NCBI GenBank assembly: GCA_031268175.1
Contig: JAIRXR010000011.1
Span: forward strand, 27,908-91,907
DNA length: 64,000 nucleotides
DNA from: Puniceicoccales bacterium
GTDB taxonomy: Bacteria; Verrucomicrobiota; Verrucomicrobiia; Opitutales; JAIRKQ01
Direction: 5' to 3'
The position numbers and the translations under genes are program-made. Under the pieces are notes generated by a model. It made no database searches and was not told where the DNA came from. It saw nothing but the letters and a program-made list of their open reading frames with translations. Shown here piece after piece: positions 555 to 45,308 of the stretch (positions are counted from its first letter, which is position 1; every line of letters starts with the position of its first letter).

Positions 555-863
555 GTGCTCAGAGCAATTGCCATGGAAAATATAAGAACTTCGCCACTTG
601 AAGGCGTAGAATTTTTCCCAGAAGGATCCCGCTGCTATAGTTCTAGTTCCATCCAGCTAAAGCCTCCGGACGAGGCATTACAAAGCCTGCGGGATCAAGG
701 AATAGTTTTAGGAGCTAGACTTGACATTGATCCGGCAACGGGATTGGGAGAGAAAAATCTTTTCCTGCAGTTTAAATACGAAGATACAGGCAGAGTATGG
801 TCCTACCGCGTACGCAACTTCCGACAGCCTGAAATCGCAAAAATAGAAGTCGTGGAAGAATAG
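555..863 (+). CDS. Hypothetical protein (102 aa; alternative ATG at 573)
   Basis: ORF track only. It is AT-rich, has no recognisable motif and does not overlap a better gene. Confidence 0.35.
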   Translation: MLRAIAMENIRTSPLEGVEFFPEGSRCYSSSSIQLKPPDEALQSLRDQGIVLGARLDIDPATGLGEKNLFLQFKYEDTGRVWSYRVRNFRQPEIAKIEVVEE

Positions 864-948
864 CGTAGAGAGTTTTCCGTTTGCTAAATAGGTGCCCAAT
901 TACGCGATGGCAATCCAAGAAGTCGAATACGGCTGGTGGATTTTGCAC

Positions 949-1690
949 CTATTTATTCCGCCGCGTTCCAGGGGAGACACTGTGCCGCCTCAAAGCGCTC
1001 CTCGGAGCAGTGGACAAATCTTCAGACTTCAGTTCGCTAAATTTGCGGGAATTAACGCGCCTTAGCGTAACATTCCTTTTTTCCTCGTCGGAAAAATTAG
1101 TTATGATTATTTCCAGGTAAATTCCGTGTGAAGAGCCGTAAGACGTGTCTCCATAGCTTTTTTTAAACTCAGAAAGATCTTCCTCGGAAATAGATGTGCC
1201 CCAAGTGAGCTTCAAAGAGTCGCTCTTTTTAAGCTCAGAAATGTCCTCTTCGGAGATATAATTACGCTCAGGAAATGCCAGACAACTCAGCGCACAAAAC
1301 AAATTAAAGTGTTCCTCACTCTCCACAACATACCTGTGATTCATATATGATCCTATCACCACATTTCTAATCATGGAACGGATGAGAGCTCGGGTGAGAT
1401 ATTCGCGTTCGCTGTGGCTACCAGAAAGGTACTCGCCGTTCTCCGCGATAATTTTTTTGAAAACATCGGACTTCCGTACTTTTGCGGTCACACTGCGAGA
1501 AGATAAGTCCCTTTGCGGTATTTTTTTCAAGGTCAGTTTTCAGTTGTCCAATGCAATTATGGTATTCGTGTTCGTCCATTATTTGTCTACTCCACGCACA
1601 CTCAATGGCTTTCAGACGCTCCTTGACCTCCACGCTTATCCAAGGTTGTAGGCCTCGGGATACTCGGTAATAACACCAAAATCTGAACAA
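949..1690 (-). pseudogene. Hypothetical gene split by a frameshift in an A7 (T7 on + strand) homopolymer
   Basis: ORFs 1418..1690(-) and 949..1530(-) overlap in different frames. The upstream frame reads ...GQLKTDLEKNTAKG. The downstream frame starts at a TTG inside ctt gaa aaa aat acc. Deleting one A of the run at 1521..1527 joins them into ...KTDLEKIPQRDLSSRS..., about 246 aa. Confidence 0.4.
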
Positions 1691-1813
1691 TTACAACCGC
1701 ATCTGACGATATCACTCATGGTCCCCACTAGGGAAACACAAGCAAACATTTTTACAATAAAAATTGTTCAAAAAAGTAAAATTTTTACTCTAACTCTTCG
1801 ATGAAGATTGCGC

Positions 1814-2220
1814 TTATTTATGCCTATTGCAGCGAGCAATCACAGGAGAAAAATTGGTCGGTGTGACGACTAAAGACCGGGAAAAATAACACTCCACCAG
1901 CATTGAGGCATCGCCATTGACCCATGGTTTGATTACTCCATTTGATGAAAAAGCTAGATTTTTCATTGCAGGTGTTTCGCCACTGCCATCGCTGCCATGG
2001 GTCTTGCTTCCCAACCACTCGCAGAGAGCATCCTCGGGATATCGTATTATTCGCCTGATTTTAACGTAGGTGGCATGTCACCCTTTTCGTAGCGCCACTG
2101 GTTTAGACATTGCGCCGTTATTCCCATAACTTGTGCTGTCTCATCCTGGGAGAGAAGCTTTTGTTTATTGCTTATACCGCACACCGAAGGCCTAGAGCAA
2201 CGGCAGGATTTTATTATCAT
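1814..2220 (-). pseudogene. Excisionase/AlpA-type HTH gene, apparently frameshifted
   Basis: Own translation of 2220..2047 gives MIIKSCRCSRPSVCGISNKQKLLSQDETAQVMGITAQCLNQWRYEKGDMPPTLKSGE*. This has the HTH_17-like pattern 'LLSxxExAxxxGISxxxLxxW'. The expected continuation ...RRIIRYPEDALCEWLGSK... is present but shifted by one frame, and that frame runs on to 1814. Confidence 0.4.
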
Positions 2221-2249
2221 CCTGGATTTTTATCAGAACAATTTCCTAG

Positions 2250-2278
2250 TTGACAAAAGAAGAAAAAAATGCTAGAAT
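2250..2278 (+). promoter_or_regulatory. Sigma70-type promoter for the Josephin-like ORF
   Basis: TTGACA (2250-2255), a 17-nt spacer and TAGAAT (2273-2278). A GGGAGGGG SD and the GTG/ATG start at 2291/2294 follow. Confidence 0.6.
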
Positions 2279-2290
2279 ACGGCGGGAGGG

Positions 2291-5200
2291 GTGATGGAGA
2301 ATGACATTTTGAATGGAGGTAAGTTTTTTTCCGAAGCGAAAGCTTTATGCGAAAAAGAGGGAACTAACAACTCCGCAACATTCGATATCAGCAATAAAAG
2401 TTGTACGCTGAGTGTTTCAAAAATAGGAGGATTTGCGACAGCGAAATTGGAAGATAGAAATTGCACCGCGTTTAAGGAAACGCTAGATGCGGGCAAGGAT
2501 GCTTGGCAACCTATTTTGGAAAGTCATAGGCCCGATAACAAGGGAAACCCCAAGGAAGGTGCGAGCGATCTTGTGGAATCTGAGGCAAACTCTAAGCACA
2601 GTGAAATTTCCGAAGAAGGTGCGGGAAATATAAACGCACAAGAGGGTATTGACACGTGCTCTACTTTGAAAGAAGGAGCTAGCGTAAGTCTTGTGCGCAA
2701 GCCTTCAGATGGATCATTTCAGCTCATTGACCCAAATTCAGAGGTCCATAAGCATAGAATGGAGAAACCTATCGCGCCTTTCGCCAGAGGAAATAACTCT
2801 GCTCTGTGGATAGGGAAAAATGTTTGCCGTCGACACCTAAATGCCGAACTTTTCAAGAGAAAAAATCAATTTTTGCTAGGGGATAAATTTTTTGCAAAGG
2901 GAACTTTGGATCAAAAGTGGCGCACGAATGGTAGTGAAGTTGAAAAAACAGAGAACGCCTCCGAAAAAAAAGAATTGCACGACAAAATGGAGAATTTATG
3001 GCCTGGTACGAATTTTGCAGAATATGTGTTTGGTCAATATTCAGAAACTGAATCAGATATAAGGTACAACACAATTAGTGAAAAAGGTCGCAGACTTTTG
3101 GGAAATATCATTTCGGAAACTGAAAATTTGGAAAATGAACTGAAAAAATTGAACGACAAAAAAGAAGCATTATCATACGAAGAAGATGCTCGGAAAAAAC
3201 AGCTGGAAGACGGAATTACCAGTCTTAAAGTCATAGCTGGAAGCCATGGCAACACCTGTTCTGAAACGCTTACAATTCTTCTGCTACAAATGGCAGACAC
3301 TATTGATACGACGAATAATGTAACTCTTGCTCCAGATGGAATAGCGAACAAAATTTTAACGCAATATCGGACTAAACTTAGTAAAGAAGTAATAGATCCT
3401 CTAACAGGAACTCTACTTAACAGAAACCTTTCTGCTTTTATAGCAGGAGAAGTTGAATTTAAATTTGGCAGTGCGCCTTATATGAAAAGATTTAGAGAAG
3501 AATACGCTTTAGGTCTCAAATCCTTCATGGGAAAATTTTTAGGCTTGGATAATAGTCACGGCGTGATAGGAGATGTGAGCAGTGGTAGTATTTTGCTTAA
3601 GGAACCACTTGGTGATGTTGCAGAAAACGTAAGGTTGCTTCCAGAAAAAGAAGGTGGAAATTCCATTACTTCCGAGGCGGAAAATGTTTTTGATACGCTC
3701 AGCGAAGAAGCGTTCGACGAAACGATGAGTGAATTTTTAATGGCTCCAGTCACATTCGAGGAATTTTGCGCTATTCGTAGAAGCTCTGTTAAAGACCTTA
3801 GAGCTAGTTTTGCCGAAGCTATAACCAAAAGCAGCGATAGCAATGATCCGGGTGATAAGGCTGCTCTCGTGCTGCTGCGCTACTGGACGGACGGATTCGC
3901 TGCAGATATGTCCAGCCTCGGTGGAATTGACAAGCTCGAAAAAGAATTGCAGACGTCCATAAAAGAGAAAGAGCTAGAAATAGATAAATCGCAAAAAAAG
4001 ATCGATTCAAATATCTCTGTAGAAGGAGTGAACGCAAGAGATGCCGCCAAAAAGAATTTGCAGCTGCTGAAATACGCCGTAGATGCTCTTGAAAATCTAA
4101 AAAATCATACCAATGCAACTTCCCAAGAATTACAAAAAGAAGGCACAGCGGTCCCATTGGGCTTGATTCGTGAAATTTTGATTGGATTGGATAATTTCGA
4201 CCTCATTCCGGAATTTGCTAAAACAAGCAAAGAACAACGTAAAGTTATGGCAGAGTTGTACTTCCCGGCATACCTATATTCCACCGGGGCATTGATTCTC
4301 AAAAACAATGTGCAAATACCCGAAGAAAATCCTGCACTACCAAATCCATTTCCAAAAAGCTCAGACAAAAAGCTAAAGAAAAGAGAAAAAAATAAAGAAA
4401 TAGAAGCCTGGTACACTCCGGAAAATTTTACCTTAACTCCACAAAACGAAGAAGACCTATACTTCGAACGGCAAATAAATTCCATAAAAACTTGTGGAAT
4501 ACACGCTTTGAACCATTACGTTGGATACTCCGCTTTTGGAGCTGAGGATATGCGTATAAACCATGTGCTGTACCAGATAGCAACATCCCAAGATCAATTT
4601 AAGAATTGGGAGGATGATTTAAAAGAACTGTTGAATGATTTAAAAGGAAAAAAAATCGATCTCATAACGGCTGAAAATTGGATTAGCAAAGATGAGCAAA
4701 TTAGTACCCTCACCGAAAACATCGACGGCCTAATCGAAGATAGCGATGAAATTCATCAGGCTGTCTCGGAAATAGCCGAGCAAAGCGGACAAATTTTAAA
4801 CGGTGAAAAAACCAACAATCTCCCGGAAAAAGCGAAAATTATTTGCAACTATCTCGATAAAATTTCAAAGCTTACTATTCCAAGTGATGATCGATCCGAC
4901 CTAGAAAAGCAGATAGAAGGAATAAAACTGAAAATTTTACAAAAAATTGAAATATTTGACCCCCGCAAAGGTGCCCACGCAAGGGAGGTACAGAAGGCAA
5001 TTGAAGACAGATTTGAAGTAAAACTGCACTCCGAAAGTGGTAAGGGGGAAGACTTATCGGCTGGTAAAAAAGATGGCCCCTCCGACAATTCTGACTTCTC
5101 CAAAGCCATATCAGAAAACAAACTACCAAATGGCGTTGATCGGATGATTGTTGACATCGGTGACCATTTCACATGCCTTCGCAAACTGCCGGATGGGCAG

Positions 5201-5362
5201 TGGATTTTGTTGAATTCACTCGAAGCCGAACCAACTAAAGTGAGTAACATCAAGGATTATCTTAGCGGAATGGAGCGCTACGAAGTGCTATACTGTGAAT
5301 CTAGCGACGATCAGCAAAAAATTAATGCAGCCACTAACGCCACCATTGCCGAGCCCGCATAA
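2291..5362 (+). CDS. Large candidate effector protein with a C-terminal Josephin (MJD)-like cysteine protease domain
   Basis: A 1023-aa ORF with its own promoter and SD. The C-terminus carries ...FERQINSIKTCGIHALNHYVG... and ...GDHFTCLRKLPDGQWILLNSLEAEP..., which match the Cys box and the His/Asn box of the ataxin-3 Josephin domain. The remainder is E/K-rich and probably coiled-coil. Confidence 0.85.
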   Translation: MMENDILNGGKFFSEAKALCEKEGTNNSATFDISNKSCTLSVSKIGGFATAKLEDRNCTAFKETLDAGKDAWQPILESHRPDNKGNPKEGASDLVESEANSKHSEISEEGAGNINAQEGIDTCSTLKEGASVSLVRKPSDGSFQLIDPNSEVHKHRMEKPIAPFARGNNSALWIGKNVCRRHLNAELFKRKNQFLLGDKFFAKGTLDQKWRTNGSEVEKTENASEKKELHDKMENLWPGTNFAEYVFGQYSETESDIRYNTISEKGRRLLGNIISETENLENELKKLNDKKEALSYEEDARKKQLEDGITSLKVIAGSHGNTCSETLTILLLQMADTIDTTNNVTLAPDGIANKILTQYRTKLSKEVIDPLTGTLLNRNLSAFIAGEVEFKFGSAPYMKRFREEYALGLKSFMGKFLGLDNSHGVIGDVSSGSILLKEPLGDVAENVRLLPEKEGGNSITSEAENVFDTLSEEAFDETMSEFLMAPVTFEEFCAIRRSSVKDLRASFAEAITKSSDSNDPGDKAALVLLRYWTDGFAADMSSLGGIDKLEKELQTSIKEKELEIDKSQKKIDSNISVEGVNARDAAKKNLQLLKYAVDALENLKNHTNATSQELQKEGTAVPLGLIREILIGLDNFDLIPEFAKTSKEQRKVMAELYFPAYLYSTGALILKNNVQIPEENPALPNPFPKSSDKKLKKREKNKEIEAWYTPENFTLTPQNEEDLYFERQINSIKTCGIHALNHYVGYSAFGAEDMRINHVLYQIATSQDQFKNWEDDLKELLNDLKGKKIDLITAENWISKDEQISTLTENIDGLIEDSDEIHQAVSEIAEQSGQILNGEKTNNLPEKAKIICNYLDKISKLTIPSDDRSDLEKQIEGIKLKILQKIEIFDPRKGAHAREVQKAIEDRFEVKLHSESGKGEDLSAGKKDGPSDNSDFSKAISENKLPNGVDRMIVDIGDHFTCLRKLPDGQWILLNSLEAEPTKVSNIKDYLSGMERYEVLYCESSDDQQKINAATNATIAEPA

Positions 5363-5697
5363 GCCGGGAATATCACACAGGGACACCTGATTCGCTTCTC
5401 ATATTTTTACGGACGTCCAGGGTTTTTGCATGGTTCTTTAATTCCAATGCTTTGGCTCTATGGCGATGATTTTTAATCACCGATGCTGCCCCGTGGCGAA
5501 TGTTTTCAGATGTCCACTTGGACGGAGCCAGTATCACCGCAGATAGAAGCTTTTTCAAATATTCGTGCCCCATCGGCGGAGGATCGAAAAAATTCCAACG
5601 GCATGGAATCCAAATCGATCCACGATTCGACTTTTTCTTTTAACGCAAAGAAATGATATGCATTGACAAAATTCGCCTTTTCTTTTGACGTAGAGAA

Positions 5698-7485
5698 ATG
5701 ATACATATTGACAAAAATTTGCAAATTTTTACAATGGGGGCGGGAGAAGTAGATGTTAATTTACCATCTGTCACCGCTTGCAGTGAAAAATTTGATGGCC
5801 ACACACTGGCAGCTGAAAAATCTAAGCTCATCCAGACGCAATCACAAGTTACCGACGACGCACTAGGGACGCACCTCATGGTCGCGGCCCATGATTCTCC
5901 GGCAAACTTCTTCCCATCGGCGCCATCGCAACACACGAATTCAACGGCGGAGCAAATTACTTTGCCAGCGGCGGAAATCACCGCAGTGACCGGCGCAATT
6001 CCACGTCCTACGGAAGATCTGGGAAGGACCACGTTGGCCGTGACGGAAACTCCCGAGCGTGAAAAAGAAGATGCGCGCCAGCAGATTGTGGAGGGATTTC
6101 TCAAACTGAGACTCACCGACGATAAATCGAAGATTACCAAACTCCAACAGTTAATCGAAAAATTATGGGTCAAATCACCGCAAATGCTCGAACGAATTCT
6201 GAATAACTGCAAATGGTTATCTGGCAAGGCGCAGGATGATTTCATCTATGACGTCGCAGTGACAAGCATGGAAATGGAATTGGCCGATATTTTTGAGAAT
6301 GAAGCCAACGCATTTAGTGGAAGGCTGGAACCTGGACCAGCGATTGCAATAAACCACCCGCACAAATACAAACTATTTGCCGGCGCAGGTGACAGTGTGG
6401 TAAAAAACATGCAAGAAAGATTTAACGAATGGCTGAACACAAACAAAAATGCGCTCTTTGAAACTAGTTTTCCCAATACTACTCCCCAAAAGGAGTACCA
6501 AGACATGATAGGTAACTGGGTGACATCTGCATGGCTTTATCCGATCAGAAAAGCCGTAGAAAATAATGTGCTCGCACATCGCGTGATGCAGCGTCAATAT
6601 TATGAGGAGTATTTGAAAGAATGTCAAAATGCGGATAGGGCGTACTCTAAAGAACAGATAAACGAAGACCTACAATATGAGAAAGAATGCGTGGCAAAAG
6701 CTGGGAAGTTATTGGCGGTAAGTTATTCCCTTACTCAAATGGTGTACCGGCACATGGAAACACCTAGCTATGTCGAAGGATCGCCGCCAACGGTGCTGGC
6801 CGTTCGCAAAGTAAAGAAATGTGCACTGGACAAAATGGTCGGTAAAGCTCCTGCGCAAATCGATAACAACACGAGAAATAAGAAGTGGGAATGTTATTAC
6901 AATGCGGAAAATGCCAATCCTGCTGAATCGTGGGGCCAATTGGGCATCGCACTGTATCATGCCGGTGCCAATTGCGCAACAGGAACTAATGCGGCAATTT
7001 ATGGCGAAATTCCGGTGTATGAGCTGCTTTTGTCATGCTATGGTTCCCTTTTGGGACACGCGAGCGGAAGCCTAAAGGAAATTGTGCGAATACCATTTTC
7101 CGATGTTAAAGTCATCGCGGAAACTCTGCTTAATGAGTCAGCCTATTTGAAAAATATAGTACTCAAAACCATTGAAGCCCAGTATGGAAGTGATAATGAG
7201 ACATTGAAAGAAGCCAAAGCCATTGAAGCCCAGTATACAAGGAGGGATAATGAAGCTGAGAACTATGTAGATCCCATCGTGGAAGACTACGAGCCATCGC
7301 AATTTGAAGAATTTAAATTTGACTTCGCCCCCACTAGCGCTGGCATGTCATCGCACAACGAAGGCCCGTCGTTCAGTTTCGCGAAATTTGAAGAATTTAA
7401 ATTTGACTTCGCCCCAACTAGCGCTGGCATGTCATCGCACGACGAAGGCTCGTCGGGCAGTTTCGCGAAAATTGATGGAAACTAG
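5698..7485 (+). CDS. Hypothetical protein (595 aa) with a duplicated 28-aa C-terminal repeat
   Basis: Long ORF in the AT-rich block with no recognisable domain. The start is uncertain. The in-frame ATG at 5734 overlaps a TTGACA-N16-TACAAT promoter-like element, and the next in-frame ATG is at 5878. Confidence 0.7.
   Translation: MIHIDKNLQIFTMGAGEVDVNLPSVTACSEKFDGHTLAAEKSKLIQTQSQVTDDALGTHLMVAAHDSPANFFPSAPSQHTNSTAEQITLPAAEITAVTGAIPRPTEDLGRTTLAVTETPEREKEDARQQIVEGFLKLRLTDDKSKITKLQQLIEKLWVKSPQMLERILNNCKWLSGKAQDDFIYDVAVTSMEMELADIFENEANAFSGRLEPGPAIAINHPHKYKLFAGAGDSVVKNMQERFNEWLNTNKNALFETSFPNTTPQKEYQDMIGNWVTSAWLYPIRKAVENNVLAHRVMQRQYYEEYLKECQNADRAYSKEQINEDLQYEKECVAKAGKLLAVSYSLTQMVYRHMETPSYVEGSPPTVLAVRKVKKCALDKMVGKAPAQIDNNTRNKKWECYYNAENANPAESWGQLGIALYHAGANCATGTNAAIYGEIPVYELLLSCYGSLLGHASGSLKEIVRIPFSDVKVIAETLLNESAYLKNIVLKTIEAQYGSDNETLKEAKAIEAQYTRRDNEAENYVDPIVEDYEPSQFEEFKFDFAPTSAGMSSHNEGPSFSFAKFEEFKFDFAPTSAGMSSHDEGSSGSFAKIDGN
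7303..7470 (+). repeat. Perfect-phase 84-bp tandem duplication (2 copies) inside a CDS
   Basis: 7303-7386 and 7387-7470 encode FEEFKFDFAPTSAGMSSH(N/D)EG(P/S)S(F/G)SFAK. Only a few substitutions separate the copies. Confidence 0.95.
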
Positions 7486-7503
7486 AAAGGACAGTGGAAC
7501 GCT

Positions 7504-7914
7504 ATGGAAGTTGACTGTGGAATTAAAATTTTAGGAGCAAAATATGCATGGATTGACAGACAGACTCCAAGCGTTGAGCTGGATTTGGAATTTGATGCAA
7601 CTGCACCACAGCGAATCAGTGCCTTTATAGAGGAGGTTGGTCCTGTGCCATTTAGCCATGGCCTTGTGCAACTTCGCGGAAAATCGATGGCAGATTCGAA
7701 ATTGCTGGCTCAGCATCTGAGTCAAAAATTCATTCCCGGATATCCAAGTTTGCGCGTGCCACGCATGACCAACAGCCCGAAAATTGTCAAAATTGTCAAT
7801 CACCTCTTCGATGCCGGAAATTATCTCAACGGACAGCGCTTTGAGGAAGGAAAATCTTTACCAGAGGACTTGCTTGACAAACCGACGGATCACAGTGAAC
7901 AAGGCGAAATGTGA
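7504..7914 (+). CDS. Hypothetical protein (136 aa)
   Basis: ORF track. It starts 19 nt after the 595-aa ORF on the same strand. No motif recognised. Confidence 0.45.
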   Translation: MEVDCGIKILGAKYAWIDRQTPSVELDLEFDATAPQRISAFIEEVGPVPFSHGLVQLRGKSMADSKLLAQHLSQKFIPGYPSLRVPRMTNSPKIVKIVNHLFDAGNYLNGQRFEEGKSLPEDLLDKPTDHSEQGEM

Positions 7915-8089
7915 TTGCAGCGGCTTTCTACGCGAATTCCCTCCGCGTAGAAAGGAAACTTTTTCACAGAAAAATGGCAAAAGATCCGAATGCGCCAGAT
8001 AACGTAACATTTCTTTTTTGGGACGGGAACTTGGCAGCATAGAGGATATAAAGTGAGAGTTTGGCAGTGCAATCGGCCTAAGATACTCG

Positions 8090-8542
8090 GTGCGAGATTT
8101 GAACGACACATTCCTAGCAAATTTCGCACATGCCGTGTACAACGTGACACACAGGAGACGGCCAGAGAAACCAAATAAGCCATGCAGTGTAGAATACCTA
8201 AGACTAGATGATACTAGGGAGCAAAAGGATAGAAGGAATAAAAGTGAGTGTTGCTGCAGCCGGATGAAAGATGTTATGCGTGATGCGTCATTTGCTATGT
8301 CTTACAACTCACGACACGATGAAATCTACTTAGATAGTAGAGAAGGAGATGGCTTTCACTGGCATTTTGAATTTTGCCCATTCTGCGGGAAAGACATAGA
8401 AGGCAAAAGCGAGGTTTTAAGAAAAGTCATTGGTGAAGAATTCGGCATAAATACTGAACTCGACGACTTTGATTGGGATTTGTTAGATCAACTGCCACCA
8501 GAATTCCAAACCGACGAGTGGTGGAAGAAGCGGGGGCTATAA
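8090..8542 (+). CDS. Hypothetical small protein with a CxxC motif (probable shorter form starting at ATG 8264)
   Basis: ORF track. The sequence contains ...HWHFEFCPFCGKDIEG...LPPEFQTDEWWKKRGL. No family recognised. Confidence 0.4.
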   Translation: MRDLNDTFLANFAHAVYNVTHRRRPEKPNKPCSVEYLRLDDTREQKDRRNKSECCCSRMKDVMRDASFAMSYNSRHDEIYLDSREGDGFHWHFEFCPFCGKDIEGKSEVLRKVIGEEFGINTELDDFDWDLLDQLPPEFQTDEWWKKRGL

Positions 8543-8728
8543 GTGCTTCTAGCGAACTTACCATTTTCCAACGTCCCCACGGCAAACCCATCTCTCTGTT
8601 GCGTTTATTGCAAAAACAAAAACAATGTTTTGCAAAATTTTATTGATCTAAATAAAGTTTTTGCCATCAGCTTTGTTTGCGTAAAGAATCACGCAACTTT
8701 CTCTGGAAGAGAAATTATGGGCGGGCAT

Positions 8729-18288: not shown

Positions 18289-18771
18289 CTAGCGCGACAT
18301 GAGCAGCACATTCGCGATTGCTGCGATTGCCTCTCCATTTCCGATTGCGCCGAATCCTTCGTTGGTCGTGGCTTTCAGCCCGATATTTTCAGCTTGCACG
18401 GCCAACACTTCTCCGATCGAACTTCGCATTTGCTGCAAATAGCCTGACAGCTTCGGCTCCTGCGCGATGATGACCGCATCAATGTTTGAAATGGTAAAAT
18501 TATGCTCACATATCTTTTCGCGCGCATAGTCCAAAATTACTCCCGAGGCGATGCCCTCTGTCCAGGCCTCCGTATCAGGAAAAACTTCCCCGATGTTTGG
18601 CAATCCGAGCGCCCCAAGTATGGCATCGGCAATGGCATGGCTCAGTGCATCGGCATCCGAATGGCCGACCAAACCTCTGGCATATTCGATTTCGACACCG
18701 CCAAGGATCAGCTTCCTCCCGAAATCCAACCGATGGATGTCATAGCCTATACCAATTTTGATCTTCACCAT
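18289..18771 (-). CDS. ispF: 2-C-methyl-D-erythritol 2,4-cyclodiphosphate synthase
   Basis: From ATG 18771 the protein reads MVKIKIGIGYDIHRLDFGRKLILGGVEIEYARGLVGHSDADALSHAIADAILGA, the canonical IspF DxH...HSDxD motifs. 160 aa. Confidence 0.92.
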   Translation of the reverse strand: MVKIKIGIGYDIHRLDFGRKLILGGVEIEYARGLVGHSDADALSHAIADAILGALGLPNIGEVFPDTEAWTEGIASGVILDYAREKICEHNFTISNIDAVIIAQEPKLSGYLQQMRSSIGEVLAVQAENIGLKATTNEGFGAIGNGEAIAAIANVLLMSR

Positions 18772-18920
18772 GGAGAAAGCATGGAAAAATTTTAAAATTG
18801 TGCCAATTCCAAAAGGCGGACAACGCCACTTTTTGGCGGAAGAGCGCGCCAATTTGGTAAAATTTTGCACTTTGCGTTTTTGCCATTGAATCGTGCATAA
18901 AACTTTGTACAGTTGATACT

Positions 18921-20165
18921 ATGCGATTTTTATTCAAGGCTGTTGGAGCAAACAACGAATTAGTTAGCTCAGATTTGGAAGCCAAGTCAAGGGACGAAGC
19001 GCTATTCGTTTTGAAAAGTAAAAATTTGCGCGTGATCAGTATTTTCGAAGAGTCGGCATCACCCGGAAAAACTTCATTTCTTTCTTCCACGTGGAAAAAG
19101 TTGTCCGCAAAAAGGCAACCACCGGTTCAAGTAACCGCCGACATAATGCTGCGATTATTTGAAAAGCTGCAAAAAATGGTAGCCTCTGGATTAACGCTCT
19201 CGGATTCGCTGTCATCCGTCAACAAAAGGACTAAAAATGCGGCCGAAAAAGTGCTAACTTCTTCATTGCTCACTGACATTCTCGGCGGACAGTCCATGTC
19301 CGATGCCATAAAAAAATTCGGCGCTAAAATCGACGGCAATGTCTACAGCATCATTTTGGTCGGGGAATCGAGCGGCAATCTCGCCACAGCCCTGGCTGAC
19401 ACAGTGAGACTGCTAAAATCGACGGCTGAAGTCAAAAAGAAGCTGAAGTCGTCGCTCATCTATCCAGCATTTCTCACCATGCTGGTGTTCGTGGTAATTT
19501 TGGTGTTCACATTCTTTCTGATGCCGCAAATGGAGAATTTCATAAAAACCCTCGGCGGTGAAATCCCACCAATGACGAAATTTCTAAAATCGCTAACCTC
19601 GGTGTTTATTTGGCTGGTTCCGGCTGTGGTGATTGCGGCCGTCGTGGCGTTGACATTGATTCCAAAGTTGCGGCAGACAAAGGTTGGCAGACACAAAACG
19701 GACGAACTCATACTGAAAATCAAGCCGTTCTCGACGATAATACTCCTATCGATGAGGGCGAACCTGTCAAATCTGATGGGCACGCTGCTGGCAAACGGCA
19801 TAAACACATCTGAAGCATTGGAACTGGCACAGTCTTCCATAGCGAATATGGTTTTGCGCAAAAGATTTTTGGATGCAAAAACCGACATATTGGACGGCAA
19901 AAGCGTCTGCGCGTCCTTCGAAAAACACAAAATATTTGATGGCGAAGCATGTGACTTTCTGGAGGTCGGCGAAAAAATTGGAAATTTGGGATCCTCCTTC
20001 GAAGATATCCACAATATATACGACGCAAATTTGAAAAACACGCTGAGGAAGGTAACGATCGCCGCGTCCGCCATCGCTATGATGACAGCGTTCTCACTGG
20101 TAGGCATACTGGCGCTCGGCATGGTGCAGGCCATCGCGGGAGCGACATCGGCCGCCGCTGCCTAG
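18921..20165 (+). CDS. Type II secretion / type IV pilus platform protein (GspF/PilC family), copy 1
   Basis: A 414-aa protein with two T2SSF repeats and three TM segments. It is collinear with the copy at 58345..59589. Confidence 0.85.
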   Translation: MRFLFKAVGANNELVSSDLEAKSRDEALFVLKSKNLRVISIFEESASPGKTSFLSSTWKKLSAKRQPPVQVTADIMLRLFEKLQKMVASGLTLSDSLSSVNKRTKNAAEKVLTSSLLTDILGGQSMSDAIKKFGAKIDGNVYSIILVGESSGNLATALADTVRLLKSTAEVKKKLKSSLIYPAFLTMLVFVVILVFTFFLMPQMENFIKTLGGEIPPMTKFLKSLTSVFIWLVPAVVIAAVVALTLIPKLRQTKVGRHKTDELILKIKPFSTIILLSMRANLSNLMGTLLANGINTSEALELAQSSIANMVLRKRFLDAKTDILDGKSVCASFEKHKIFDGEACDFLEVGEKIGNLGSSFEDIHNIYDANLKNTLRKVTIAASAIAMMTAFSLVGILALGMVQAIAGATSAAAA

Positions 20166-22707: not shown

Positions 22708-24078
22708 ATGCAGATGCCTATGTGTGTCAGAGAGATAATCGAAAAAATGCACGGCTACGCCAGTTTCTTGCAAAAATTTCCGGCAAAAATACGCCAATTT
22801 TTCGCAAAGAGAAAATTGGAAATGGCCTCCAAAATCACCTTTGAAAAAATAAATACCCTATCGCCGTGGCAAAGGATAAGATTCGCCCTGTGCAAGAAAA
22901 CTTTGAAAAAGCTCTATGTCGTGCACCTGCAGAGGCTGCGCGGAGAAGCAAAGCGGCGAAAAATACGCGTCGCATTTCTAATAAATTCGACGAGTAAGTG
23001 GCACTGCGAATACCTCTACGATCTGTTCGACAAAAGCGATAATTTTGAGCCGCTGATGCTGGCTACGAAGGGGTCTCCAAAGGATAGCCTCGACGGATTT
23101 CATAGGGTACTGGCGGTTCTTGAAAGTTCTGGGAAGCGTTTCGCTCGCGCCTACGATCCGGTGAAAAGGAAATATTTGAGCCTAAAAATGTTTAACCCTG
23201 ACATCGTGTTTTACGAGCAACCGTGGGGGGTAGAATTTGAGCACCGCGTGCCATATGTGGCGAATTTCGCGCTAGCGTGCTACACTCCCTACTGCTTTCA
23301 TCTGCTGCACAGCGAATACAATTATTTGGAAAAATTTCATGGATTTCTGTGGAAATACTTCGTAGAGTCGACGCTGCACCTTGAATCCTATCGATCGAAG
23401 TTCAACGCGGACAACTGCGTGAGTGTTGGCAGCTTGCACCTGGATGGATATTTGTCCAAAAAAACGTTGGACGTGGCGCCATGGAAAGACAAATCGCCGC
23501 ATAGTAAGCGCATAATTTACGCGCCGCACTTTTCGATTGGCGTGAATCACAGAATGGCAACGTTTCACCAAAATGGGCAGTTTATGCTTAACCTTGCCGA
23601 CATGTACGCCGGCACCACATGGATCGTCAGACCACATCCGGATCTTAGAGAAAGGGCAATCGGCTGTGGCCTAATGACTGAACGGGAATTTGCAGATTAC
23701 TGGAGCGAATGGGAAAAATATGGAACTGTCTCCTGGGGCGGAGACTTCATCGATCTTTTCAAAACGTCGGATTGCCTAATAACGGATTGCATATCATTTC
23801 TAGCGGATTACTTTCCGACCGGCAAGCCAGTATTTCACCTAAGAAGTGGAGAGCAAGCGGCACGATTCAATGATTTCGCCGAATCCATAATTGAAACCTA
23901 TTACCAAATTCATAACAATGCTGAACTGGAAAGGCTATTTTCGCGCGTGATTATTGGCGGTGACGATTTTATGGCCGCTCGCAGGCGTGCGCAAGCGAAA
24001 ACTCTCGGCCTCATTGGCGAAGAAATGGCTAGCAAGCGCGTATTTGATTACATTAAATCGGAGTTGAACATCCAATGA
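22708..24078 (+). CDS. CDP-glycerol/ribitol-type polyol-phosphate transferase (TagB/TagF, Glyphos_transf-like)
   Basis: The motifs ...IIYAPHFSIG...TWIVRPHPDLRE...LFKTSDCLITDCISFLADYFPTGKPVFHL resemble the PF04464 pattern (YAPTxR, HP, D-liTDySS-fDy). The stop overlaps the next gene's start (ATGA at 24075). Confidence 0.65.
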   Translation: MQMPMCVREIIEKMHGYASFLQKFPAKIRQFFAKRKLEMASKITFEKINTLSPWQRIRFALCKKTLKKLYVVHLQRLRGEAKRRKIRVAFLINSTSKWHCEYLYDLFDKSDNFEPLMLATKGSPKDSLDGFHRVLAVLESSGKRFARAYDPVKRKYLSLKMFNPDIVFYEQPWGVEFEHRVPYVANFALACYTPYCFHLLHSEYNYLEKFHGFLWKYFVESTLHLESYRSKFNADNCVSVGSLHLDGYLSKKTLDVAPWKDKSPHSKRIIYAPHFSIGVNHRMATFHQNGQFMLNLADMYAGTTWIVRPHPDLRERAIGCGLMTEREFADYWSEWEKYGTVSWGGDFIDLFKTSDCLITDCISFLADYFPTGKPVFHLRSGEQAARFNDFAESIIETYYQIHNNAELERLFSRVIIGGDDFMAARRRAQAKTLGLIGEEMASKRVFDYIKSELNIQ

Positions 24079-25439
24079 AAGTCTATGCAATAGTATTAGC
24101 TTCCGGAATCGGAAAACGCGTTGGCATCGACATCCCAAAGCAATTTTTAAAAATTTCCGGTAAAACCGTCCTGGAGCATTCGATTGAAATTTTTGAAAAC
24201 AGTGACGCAATTGATGTGATCATTGCCGTTGTTCACGGCTCATTCGTGAATTTTTGCAAAAAAATTTTCCAGCGGAATAATTATAAAAAAATTCGTAAAA
24301 TTCTAATCGGTGGGGCAACGCGCCAGGAAAGCTCGCGCATCGGCATCGAAGCGATCGGAGAAAAGGAAGCAAAAATCCTAGTCCACGATGCCGTTCGGCC
24401 GTTGCTCTCGGACAAAATTGTAACCGCGTGCATCGCTGCGCTGGACAAATACGATGCCGTCGATGTCGCAATACCAACGGCAGACACGATAATAGAGGTC
24501 GATGAATCCATGGATGTCGCGGACATACCGGCACGCGAATTCCTCATGCGCGGACAGACGCCGCAGGCCTTCAAACTGAGCGTAATAAGGCACGCCCACG
24601 AATTCGCCATGAAAGCTCCGGACTTGCATGTGACCGACGACTGCGGACTGGTGAAAGCGTTCAACCTTGCCAAAATTCATGTCATTGAAGGTGATGAAAC
24701 AAACGTGAAAATCACCTATCCCATCGACATTTTCGCCGCTGACAAGTTGTTTCAACTGAAGCGTCTGCCCTCGTCCGACGCAAATCTGACGCAGCTTGCT
24801 GGGAAGGTTTTAGTAGTTTTCGGCGCAAGCAGTGGCATAGGAAAATCGATTCACCAATTGGCCAGAAAACACGGCGCTAGGGTATGCAATTTTTCCAGAT
24901 CGAGCGGCACGGATGTGCGAAAAAAGGCAGCCATCGGCAAAGCCCTGAAATCGGTTTGCGATAGCGAAGGGCGCATAGATTTCGTTGTAAACACAGCCGG
25001 CACGTTGAAACTCGGAGAACTACTCACCAGGAGCGAAGAAGACATACGCGCCGAGGTCGAAACGAATTACTTCGGGTGTGTAAATATCGCGCTGGAAAGT
25101 CACAGATATTTGAAGCAGACTGGTGGAATGCTACTATTTTTTACGTCGAGTTCCTACACGCGCGGCCGCGCACTCTACTCAATTTACTCGTCGACGAAGG
25201 CGGCCATCGTAAATTTGACGCAGGCGCTGGCTGAGGAATGGAGCGCCGACGGCATTCGCATAAATGTCATCAATCCGACGCGAACGGCAACACCAATGAG
25301 ATCGGCAAATTTCGGAGAAGAACCGAAAGAAAGTCTGCTGTCACCTGAATTCGTAGCGGAAAAATCCCTGGCAACGCTTTTGCAGGACTACACTGGGCAA
25401 GTCATAGACGTCAGTAAGCATTCGCAACCTCAAAAATAG
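24075..25439 (+). CDS. Bifunctional IspD/TarI-like cytidylyltransferase + SDR reductase (Bcs1/CDP-ribitol-synthase-like)
   Basis: The N-terminus MKVYAIVLASGIGKRVGIDIPKQFLKISGKTVLEHS fits a cytidylyltransferase. The C-terminus has VFGASSGIGKS (SDR glycine motif) and YSSTKAAIVNL (YxxxK). Confidence 0.8.
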   Translation: MKVYAIVLASGIGKRVGIDIPKQFLKISGKTVLEHSIEIFENSDAIDVIIAVVHGSFVNFCKKIFQRNNYKKIRKILIGGATRQESSRIGIEAIGEKEAKILVHDAVRPLLSDKIVTACIAALDKYDAVDVAIPTADTIIEVDESMDVADIPAREFLMRGQTPQAFKLSVIRHAHEFAMKAPDLHVTDDCGLVKAFNLAKIHVIEGDETNVKITYPIDIFAADKLFQLKRLPSSDANLTQLAGKVLVVFGASSGIGKSIHQLARKHGARVCNFSRSSGTDVRKKAAIGKALKSVCDSEGRIDFVVNTAGTLKLGELLTRSEEDIRAEVETNYFGCVNIALESHRYLKQTGGMLLFFTSSSYTRGRALYSIYSSTKAAIVNLTQALAEEWSADGIRINVINPTRTATPMRSANFGEEPKESLLSPEFVAEKSLATLLQDYTGQVIDVSKHSQPQK

Positions 25440-43667: not shown

Positions 43668-45308
43668 ATGTCGATACAACAAACAAATCAAGAAGATGTC
43701 CTCGACGCGAATGTCGGAAAAGAGGACAAAAAAGAAGCTACATTTTCGTCTGGAACCAAAACATACATGGTTTCGGAAGCGGATACAAAGTGGAATGAAA
43801 GCGTCCCGAAGATGGAAGAGCTTGGTATCACGCTAGGGAAACGCAACGCAGCACCTTCAGGAAAATATCCGTTATTCACCGCGCCTAAAGGGACAGTTCT
43901 TGGGCAGGGATCGTATGGACGCGTCACCGAATATAGAGTTCCTCCTACGCCTACGCCTGCAGTGGCGAAACAAGGCAATGTGGAAAATGCAATCGCCGCT
44001 GGAACTAAGCCGTCACTTGCAAGGACAAAAACCGAACGGGGAAAACAACAATCGACGACTGCATTCGGAAGTACCGTTTACCACAAACCAGCGGAAACAA
44101 AGCATCCCAAGCCGATCATCGCAAATCAGAAACAAGCGGCGGTGGATACGGCCACCACCAACCCGGAACCTACTAAGTTCTACGTTAAAAAAACATCCTT
44201 GCACGAAAATACCTCAAACATCGATTTTGAGCGGGAGATAAATAGTAAACTTTGCCGAAGTAGAAGTGAGATCAAAACCGACGCCACCAAGCAGTCATAT
44301 TTGATTCATGCGGCGAATACAACCAATGTTCCAATCATAATCAAGGCCGAAAAATCGAAAGACATTTATTTTGCAAAGGCACCCGGGGAAGATTTAGGAA
44401 AAATTTTAAAAAAAGGCACGCCCATTCCACAAGAGAAAAAATTGGCTATCTGTGCTGGTGTTGCAAATGGCCTCGCCGTTGCGCACGAAAGCGGCATCGT
44501 ACATCGCGACCTAAAGCCTGGAAATGTCAACGTGGACGTGGGAACCGGATCAACGAAGGTGCTGGACTTCGGATTGGCATTCGTCCCAGATCCAGCAGAG
44601 AGGGAAAAATTAAAAAATCAACCCCATTCACGTTGTATTACAAACTACTGCGGATCAATTGAACAGTATTGGTTTTTGCAAGCAATAAATGATCGTGAAA
44701 AAGCTCTCAAACACGAGCACAACAAGCAAAAACAAGGACGATTAATTGCGGAAATAAAAACTTTGGAGAAGGATCTGGCCGCAATAACAGTCCCGGCCAC
44801 CGACGTCTACGGCTTTGGAATGTTCATGGTGGCAGGATTGTTTGGCAAGTATGGCAACGAATTGTGGAAAGAGTGGTTTTGTAAATACGAACATGAAGAC
44901 GCCGGAGCAAACATAGCAATCAGAGAGTACTTCAGAGAGAATATAGATCGTATAGCCGTCGGACTGAATAGTGGACTGCCCTTAGACGAACAATATTCGG
45001 AAGAACAATTGTACTGGATAACGGAGCTGATGAGGAACTGCACGGATCCAAATCCGACGCATAGGCCGACGGCGGCGCAGGCAGGCGAAATTTTGGAGCT
45101 CATGGCTGCGAGATTCGACCCAGATCAACTGAAAAAGGAAAAGGAGGCTGCGGCGGACGCAAAAACAAAAAAAGCAAAAACTCCCAACGGCTCAATGACA
45201 TTTGACGAAGCCTGGAGTTTGGCTATCAAGGACAGGCAGATGCCCGACCACACCCCAGAATACATTGATAAGGCCTTTAAAGCGTACCAAAAATACGATC
45301 TTTTGTAA
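43668..45308 (+). CDS. Eukaryotic-like (Hanks-type) Ser/Thr protein kinase
   Basis: Motifs seen are the G-loop LGQGSYGRV, AVAK, the catalytic loop VHRDLKPGNVNVD, LDFGLA, YCGSIE, TDVYGFGMFM and NPTHRPTAAQ. Two hand-counted 60-nt lines give about 37-38% G+C. Confidence 0.85.
   Translation: MSIQQTNQEDVLDANVGKEDKKEATFSSGTKTYMVSEADTKWNESVPKMEELGITLGKRNAAPSGKYPLFTAPKGTVLGQGSYGRVTEYRVPPTPTPAVAKQGNVENAIAAGTKPSLARTKTERGKQQSTTAFGSTVYHKPAETKHPKPIIANQKQAAVDTATTNPEPTKFYVKKTSLHENTSNIDFEREINSKLCRSRSEIKTDATKQSYLIHAANTTNVPIIIKAEKSKDIYFAKAPGEDLGKILKKGTPIPQEKKLAICAGVANGLAVAHESGIVHRDLKPGNVNVDVGTGSTKVLDFGLAFVPDPAEREKLKNQPHSRCITNYCGSIEQYWFLQAINDREKALKHEHNKQKQGRLIAEIKTLEKDLAAITVPATDVYGFGMFMVAGLFGKYGNELWKEWFCKYEHEDAGANIAIREYFRENIDRIAVGLNSGLPLDEQYSEEQLYWITELMRNCTDPNPTHRPTAAQAGEILELMAARFDPDQLKKEKEAAADAKTKKAKTPNGSMTFDEAWSLAIKDRQMPDHTPEYIDKAFKAYQKYDLL

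Follow-up and report, generated by a model that had tools for sequence, protein, structure and literature searches.

The window analysed here is a stretch of 64,000 nucleotides from contig JAIRXR010000011.1 (assembly GCA_031268175.1) of a Puniceicoccales bacterium, phylum Verrucomicrobiota, and it carries an intact open reading frame (ORF) at 2291-5362 on the forward strand (1023 amino acids counted from GTG 2291, with the stop codon included in the coordinates) whose C-terminal part was proposed by eye, in an earlier note on this DNA, to be a Josephin cysteine protease. The public gene call (P0001) starts at ATG 2294, one codon later, and gives 1022 amino acids. The locus raises the question whether a bacterial gene of this kind encodes a member of the Josephin family, and if so in what respects it departs from the known members and on what substrate the enzyme would act. 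As judged from sequence profiles and a structural model, the C-terminal part of about 320 residues is a Josephin-fold papain-like cysteine protease, and the protein is an unusual branch of a recently described bacterial Josephin family and not a first. Features and their coordinates are collected in Table 1.

The span 4454-5290 translates to DLYFERQINSIKTCGIHALNHYVGYSAFGAED ... TCLRKLPDGQWILLNSLEAEPTKVSNIKDYL, the same residues that were quoted in the earlier note. The similarity of the query alone to Josephins is borderline, since its score against Pfam PF02099 (21.3 bits) stays below the curated gathering score of 26 bits and phmmer against PDB sequences returned PaJOS only, at E 1.2. A word-indexed homologue search with the full protein found a single relative (P0002, 39% identical over the full length); the same type of search returned no relatives with the C-terminal domain alone and two proteins only with the family alignment. 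Exhaustive HMMER searching with the C-terminal 323 residues gave 22 cluster representatives, of which 14 had E ≤ 1e-10, and an alignment of 13 excised domain copies, 18-41% identical to the query (A2), was used as a profile against all PDB sequences. BpJOS (7.3e-8) and PaJOS (1.9e-7) came out in the lead, followed by three ataxin-3 entries at about 2e-6 (best 1.7e-6), ATXN3L (6.3e-6), JOSD2 (2.1e-4) and PcJOS (3.3e-4), so that the profile scores slightly better for bacterial than for eukaryotic Josephins. Two separate stretches were matched in each of BpJOS, PaJOS, ataxin-3 and ATXN3L, and in the alignments printed for BpJOS, PaJOS and ataxin-3 one stretch is the Cys box and the other the His box; the single-stretch matches of JOSD2 and PcJOS are the Cys box and the His box, respectively. 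The only other low E-values in the PDB belonged to designed coiled coils, which matched the helical middle part of the domain. PF02099 was matched individually by 12 of the 13 family members (E ≤ 0.1, best E 2.4e-7). Since both the family profile and these individual Pfam matches detect Josephins, the relation is read from the sequences as homology and not as convergence, and the convergent origin that the earlier note had allowed is dropped. Its by-eye likeness to ataxin-3 is marginal for the single sequence, where the Pfam match is confined to the His box, and becomes significant with the family profile and with structure; the Josephin profile check that it had asked for likewise turned out sub-threshold for the query and significant at the level of the family.

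The fold was examined with an AlphaFold2 model of the domain built from the 13-row alignment (mean predicted local distance difference test, pLDDT, 87.2; predicted template modelling score, pTM, 0.84). In a Foldseek search against the PDB, ranks 1-9 were all Josephins, with probabilities of 0.99-1.00. The top match was BpJOS (9f5t, E 3.1e-4, target-normalised template modelling score, TM-score, 0.56), and the others in this group were ATXN3L (3o65), ataxin-3 (1yzb), PaJOS (9g7g) and PcJOS (9fpa and 9fn4). The structural check foreseen in the earlier note had Josephins as best matches, with the catalytic residues in a papain-like placement in the model; profile match, structural match and papain-like arrangement, any of which could have refuted the identification, all spoke in its favour.

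The proposed catalytic triad, Cys735 (TGT, 4493-4495), His959 (CAT, 5165-5167) and Asn975 (AAT, 5213-5215), is supported: the codons are as had been given, the positions are conserved in the family, and in the model they sit where a papain fold has them. Cys735 (model residue 32) is placed at the N-terminus of helix 32-41, His959 (256) at the start of strand 257-262 and Asn975 (272) just past strand 268-271, which are predicted canonical positions. Among the 13 domain copies, position 735 is Cys in all, position 959 is His in 12, the one departure being the first of the two tandem domains of P0003, where Cys replaces the catalytic His, and position 975 is Asp in 11 and Asn in two. Position 960, a 'gatekeeper' typical of deubiquitinases, is F, Y or I in 13/13 and aromatic in 12/13, and position 976 is Ser throughout. 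Missing from the residue list of the earlier note was the conserved oxyanion-hole Gln728, which is Gln in 12/13 copies and stands opposite the oxyanion-hole Gln in the alignments with BpJOS and ataxin-3. The conservation of catalytic positions among sequences that are only 18-41% identical argues for purifying selection on the active site.

The most conspicuous departure from known Josephins is the distance between the catalytic Cys and His, which is 224 residues here and 199-285 residues over all 13 domain copies, compared with about 70-122 in the described bacterial Josephins (about 70 in BpJOS and about 121-122 in PaJOS and PcJOS) and 105 in ataxin-3. The segment is rich in isoleucine and lysine (11.5% each) and in glutamate and aspartate (10.5% each). 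In the earlier note it was read as an E/K-rich insertion of about 120 residues inside the fold; the large extra segment is real, while its interpretation as a foreign insert is not retained. In the model the arm forms helices mostly of pLDDT above 85, and in the profile alignment about 166 arm positions stand opposite some 40 residues of BpJOS (90-129), corresponding to the alpha2-alpha4 region. Since the enlargement is common to 13/13 copies and aligned opposite alpha2-alpha4, sequence and model together describe it as the Josephin helical arm, enlarged throughout the clade to about 160 residues, and not as an inserted foreign domain. In crystal structures the S1 ubiquitin is contacted at its Ile44 patch by the alpha2-alpha4 region, and the shape of this region settles whether cleavage is conventional or of the clippase type (Hermanns et al., bioRxiv 10.1101/2024.07.24.604956). 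The predictor published for the clippase mode is the orientation of the S1 ubiquitin in an AlphaFold complex, as compared with BpJOS and PaJOS. The enlarged arm therefore stands at a predicted S1 position, and is the probable determinant of specificity for substrate, chain type or cleavage position.

The view that Josephins are a purely eukaryotic family, held in the earlier note, is outdated. The first report of Josephins in bacteria, from 2023, concerned Simkania (PMC10643670), and in 2024-25 a multi-phylum bacterial family was described with crystal structures (PDB 9f5t, 9g7g and 9fn4/9fpa). Of its 15 characterised members 14 were active on ubiquitin: three are conventional deubiquitinases, and 11 are clippases (UCC), for which the cut falls between Arg74 and Gly75 (Hermanns et al.). 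Also MDR1255345.1 (P0039, in the 90% cluster of P0011), a relative of the present protein, is named 'Josephin domain-containing protein, partial [Puniceicoccales bacterium]' by NCBI, the remaining family members carrying the name 'hypothetical protein'. The best sequence-profile and structural matches of the domain are the bacterial Josephins (BpJOS, PaJOS, PcJOS and SnJOS1/2), with which it shares the His-aromatic and (D/N)-S motifs and, in the case of BpJOS, an identical Gln-x6-Cys spacing, with Gln seven residues before Cys. Both groups are bacterial, with a patchy taxonomic spread and a catalytic domain set within a larger protein with lineage-specific extensions. In the present clade a helical bundle of about 160 residues, roughly fourfold larger, takes the place of the alpha2-alpha4 arm, and the domain follows a conserved module of some 570 residues, to which it is fused and which has no structural match; the clade also differs in its occurrence in Verrucomicrobiota, a phylum outside the published list of Pseudomonadota, Chlamydiota, Myxococcota, Acidobacteriota and Cyanobacteriota (bioRxiv 10.1101/2024.07.24.604956). 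With the eukaryotic Josephins (ataxin-3, ATXN3L and JOSD1/2; PF02099, MEROPS C86) it shares the papain-like fold and the Gln/Cys/His/Asn set, Asn being the third triad residue in ataxin-3 as here, and the ataxin-3 His box HF.C.RKL..QW..LNSL shows clear similarity to HWFTVRKLGKQWFNLNSL. Compared with ataxin-3, two more residues lie between Gln and Cys (7 versus 5) and the arm is much larger; ubiquitin-interacting motifs and a polyglutamine tail are lacking, and the context is a bacterial chromosome.

All relatives for which the source gives an organism come from genome bins of Puniceicoccales. In a scan of a genome collection the genome of P0002 was the sole match, and two metagenome scans gave no match. 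The genome of this closest relative (JAIRYE..., isolate Gsp477_bin29) falls within the accession range JAIRJQ-JAITXW, deposited with a metagenome study of termite guts. Putatively endosymbiotic Opitutales are mentioned in that paper, among them Ca. Nucleococcus, which is endonuclear (PMC11257099). The gene pntB lies 6-9 kb from the Josephin gene both in the window and in the closest relative, and PntB is 59% identical between the two genomes as against 38% for the Josephin protein. About 3 kb upstream of the orthologue in the closest relative, positions 7062-7259 of its locus (L001) encode a stretch of 66 residues that matches the C-terminal end of the Josephin domain at 52% identity and is probably the remnant of a second copy. 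A cluster of paralogues is found in a further locus (L003, 7048-11920; JGI 3300042590), in which a 681-amino-acid gene has the N-terminal module and the Cys box, a 236-amino-acid gene has a His-box fragment, and a 639-amino-acid protein has two tandem Josephin-like domains; P0003 and P0004 are proteins with two such domains in tandem. The G+C content of the Josephin gene is 40.6% compared with 50.8% for the chromosome beyond 11 kb, about 10 points lower, and individual 600-nucleotide windows go as low as 36.5-38%; the figure of about 35%, hand-counted on one line in the earlier note, was too low for the gene. Paralogue clusters, tandem domains, remnants, low G+C, a place in a low-G+C tract beside a tRNA gene and a divergence greater than that of PntB are together typical of effectors.

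The best explanation of these data, and a reasonably probable one, is that the protein is a secreted, host-directed Josephin protease acting on ubiquitin; the targeting of host ubiquitin is plausible from family membership and ecology, and termite-gut flagellates are the leading guess for the host. In the mechanism that we infer, the protein would be delivered into a eukaryotic host cell, where the domain would bind the C-terminal tail of host ubiquitin, or of a close ubiquitin-like modifier, as expected by homology with the characterised bacterial Josephins. The enlarged arm would position the ubiquitin being cleaved off in the S1 site, Gln728 would form the oxyanion hole, and Cys735, His959 and Asn975 would be the triad of an active protease. 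The cut would fall after Gly76 if the enzyme works as a conventional deubiquitinase, and between Arg74 and Gly75 if it is a clippase, for which removal is irreversible; ubiquitin would in this way be taken off host proteins or proteins associated with the bacterial surface or the symbiont. Several observations speak against this explanation. The match of the single sequence to PF02099 (E 2.5e-4) is limited to profile positions 96-140 of 157, which hold the His box, and the target-normalised TM-scores are moderate at 0.45-0.57 (0.33-0.57 over all of Foldseek ranks 1-9), which is attributed to the large size of the arm. KrJOS, which is among the characterised bacterial Josephins, showed no activity in vitro (bioRxiv 10.1101/2024.07.24.604956). 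No hydrophobic signal sequence was seen at the N-terminus when the protein sequence was read by eye, no secretion-system gene or chaperone was identified adjoining the Josephin gene, and the chromosome in the window looks non-reduced.

The same fold could instead serve a substrate other than ubiquitin, either by cutting a bacterial peptide or protein at a site of Gly-Gly type, as C39 double-glycine leader peptidases do, or as a toxin or processing domain in interbacterial competition. The weaker Foldseek matches (E 0.02-0.1) were small papain-like proteases of ubiquitin and ubiquitin-like proteins including UfSP and ZUFSP, and among them were also the double-glycine-motif peptidase 6mpz (E 0.05-0.07) and YopQ. 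PcJOS was itself deposited in the PDB as 'Peptidase C39-like domain-containing protein', and neither a secretion system nor a eukaryote-specific partner was found at the locus. C39 peptidases, UfSP, ZUFSP and viral-tegument-like deubiquitinases have a minimal papain-like core and a Gly-Gly-type preference in common with the domain, but structurally they fall below every Josephin and gave no sequence-profile match, so that Josephins outrank all C39-type matches in both respects. Pfam C39 matched none of the 13 family members, no ABC transporter, bacteriocin or immunity gene adjoins the Josephin gene, and the deubiquitinase-type aromatic gatekeeper after the His is conserved. A non-ubiquitin substrate is accordingly held to be unlikely.

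Next in rank, and unlikely too, is a protease for NEDD8, SUMO, ATG8, UFM1 or a protist-specific modifier, re-targeted by the enlarged arm. The S1-binding arm is wholly remodelled relative to all characterised Josephins, NEDD8 is accepted by BpJOS (bioRxiv 10.1101/2024.07.24.604956), and UfSP and ZUFSP stand among the weaker structural matches just listed. Every active characterised Josephin, eukaryotic or bacterial, works on ubiquitin, however, and no feature of the sequence indicates a particular alternative modifier. A Josephin-like scaffold without catalysis or in decay (a pseudo-enzyme, or a gene being lost) would fit the remnant and split genes in related genomes (L001 7062-7259; the 681- and 236-amino-acid genes of L003), the Cys found for the catalytic His in one tandem copy of P0003 and the inactivity of KrJOS; this is very improbable, as the ORF is intact over 1023 codons with all four catalytic positions canonical and the active site is kept at 18-41% identity, implying purifying selection. 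Least credible is a deconjugating enzyme acting inside the bacterium in a Bil- or Bub-type anti-phage operon: bacteria do have ubiquitin-like conjugation systems that come with deconjugating proteases, but no E1, E2 or ubiquitin-like gene lies near the Josephin gene, an operon of these genes is absent beside the orthologues in L001-L005, PADLOC gave no anti-phage match for the protein or its neighbours, and the neighbours are orphans without NCBIfam or significant Pfam match.

Under the preferred explanation, a host-directed protease acting on ubiquitin, the N-terminal module of about 570 residues probably gives targeting or a second function. In a six-member alignment (A3), conservation extends over residues 130-702 and is shared with five other proteins. 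A His-x3-Cys motif (H319/C323 in GSHGNTCSE, nt 3245-3259) is kept in 5/5 relatives covering the module, and the Cys of a TFEEFC motif (C493, nt 3767-3769) is invariant; as a speculation from these residues, the two motifs could belong to a second catalytic centre or bind a metal. The AlphaFold model of the module is all alpha-helical and of moderate confidence (pLDDT 68, pTM 0.66), and with this moderate-confidence model Foldseek found nothing significant in the PDB (best E 0.4); Pfam, PDB sequences and NCBIfam gave zero matches. A bolder view is that the protein is a new kind of Josephin, with an arm giving a specificity or cleavage position not seen before and with the N-terminal module as a second catalytic domain, together making a two-enzyme effector of endosymbionts of termite-gut flagellates. 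The specificity could then be for a particular chain type, a branched chain, a protist-specific ubiquitin-like modifier or a non-ubiquitin substrate. This view is possible but doubtful.

Between the module and the Josephin domain lies a basic patch, PKSSDKKLKKREKNKE, at residues 688-703. Such a patch had been noted earlier as resembling a nuclear localisation signal; the patch is present, and as a localisation signal it was rejected, being unconserved in the orthologues and encoded by an A-rich tandem repeat (19 bp x2, 4363-4400).

Upstream of the gene, TTGACA and TAGAAT are separated by 17 nucleotides, with TG before the second hexamer, and 11/12 positions match the consensus. The promoter claimed in the earlier note is in this sense present, yet promoter-like sites in the region (10) are no commoner than in shuffled sequence (8.2 ± 3.1). 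As the second hexamer ends just 15 nucleotides upstream of ATG 2294, the site is listed as a pattern match only.

The window is an ordinary chromosome segment with genes for MutS, Rho, YidC, RecD2, anaerobic NrdD, an RND efflux pump, Der and Fmt. The Josephin gene lies in a low-G+C tract bounded on the left by a glycosyltransferase gene and on the right by a tRNA-Met gene. The G+C dip and the adjacent tRNA suggest a genomic island, and the status stays at this level because neither an integrase ORF for the tract nor a direct repeat of the tRNA-Met 3' end was found. The other ORFs of the tract had no NCBIfam or PADLOC match and no significant Pfam match, and in a synteny comparison they had no counterpart in the loci of the relatives. 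The 3' end of the 595-amino-acid ORF carries an 84-bp tandem repeat (x2.1, 7301-7475, 93% matches) that encodes a 28-amino-acid unit, FEEFKFDFAPTSAGMSSH(N/D)EG.S.SFAK. Another tandem repeat (45 bp x2, 5625-5716) covers intergenic sequence together with the start annotated for this ORF, and is overlapped by a near-consensus promoter-like TTGACA-16-TACAAT at 5708-5735. The position of this site, downstream of the ORF's first ATG, makes the real start of the 595-amino-acid ORF uncertain. The C-terminal half of the 511-amino-acid ORF resembles, by eye, an OTU-type deubiquitinase (PPCRCSLSAAVAF ... VVLYRIMDENHFAAV), an impression that found no support in Pfam, NCBIfam, PADLOC or PDB sequences.

Elsewhere in the window, the only secretion-related genes are T2SS-F/type IV pilus platform genes at 18921-20165 (forward strand) and 58345-59685 (reverse strand), far from the Josephin gene. 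A 546-amino-acid protein (43668-45308, forward strand) has only a partial match to a eukaryote-type protein kinase domain (Pkinase profile positions 70-150, E 3e-15), with its N-terminal half unmatched. The ORF at 24075-25439 (forward strand) is a fusion of an IspD-type cytidylyltransferase and a short-chain dehydrogenase, and a separate IspF (YgbB) gene is found at 18289-18870 (reverse strand).

Table 1. Coordinates of the Josephin gene, its parts and the surrounding features in the window.
Feature	Position	Strand	Basis or remark
Low-G+C tract (36-46% vs ~51%)	~600..9250		Josephin gene and four to five orphan ORFs
Sigma-70-like promoter match	2250..2278	+	Pattern match only
Whole gene	2291..5362	+	1023 aa (GTG 2291) or 1022 aa (ATG 2294)
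Conserved N-terminal module, aa 130-702	2678..4396	+	Alignment A3, AlphaFold
Lys-rich linker KSSDKKLKKREKNKE, aa 689-703	4355..4399	+	Likened to a nuclear localisation signal in the earlier note
Josephin-like cysteine protease domain, aa 704-1023	4400..5359	+	Profile, Pfam, AlphaFold, Foldseek
Cys box, Gln728 (4472-4474) to Cys735 (4493-4495)	4472..4495	+	Alignment with BpJOS, PaJOS, ataxin-3
Enlarged helical arm, aa 751-908	4541..5014	+	Model residues 48-205, eight helices
His/Asn box: His959, Phe960, Trp971, Asn975, Ser976	5165..5215	+	Family alignment, model
595-aa orphan ORF	5698..7485	+	Directly downstream of the Josephin gene; Pfam match only chance-level
150-aa ORF	8090..8542	+	Sub-threshold DUF6980, E 5.5e-5, 23.8 bits vs cut-off 27
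tRNA-Met (CAT)	9252..9327	-	Right edge of the low-G+C tract
511-aa orphan ORF	9510..11045	-	Just past tRNA-Met

Bacterial Josephins are a recently recognised class, and the clippases among them are under development as tools for ubiquitin research, their value being that ubiquitin is removed irreversibly and a Gly-Gly mark is left on the substrate. The fold assignment made here is what a specialist would now expect and overturns no existing knowledge. The clade would extend the Josephin family to Verrucomicrobiota, and it would show that the ubiquitin-positioning arm, which decides between the conventional and the clippase cut, can grow about fourfold; if the enzyme is active, it is a natural experiment on the determinants of specificity in the Josephin fold. 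The effector biology of Puniceicoccales is essentially unexplored, and the findings are a hint that uncultured members of this order, of which at least some live in termite guts, interfere with ubiquitin in a eukaryotic host, probably the gut flagellates.

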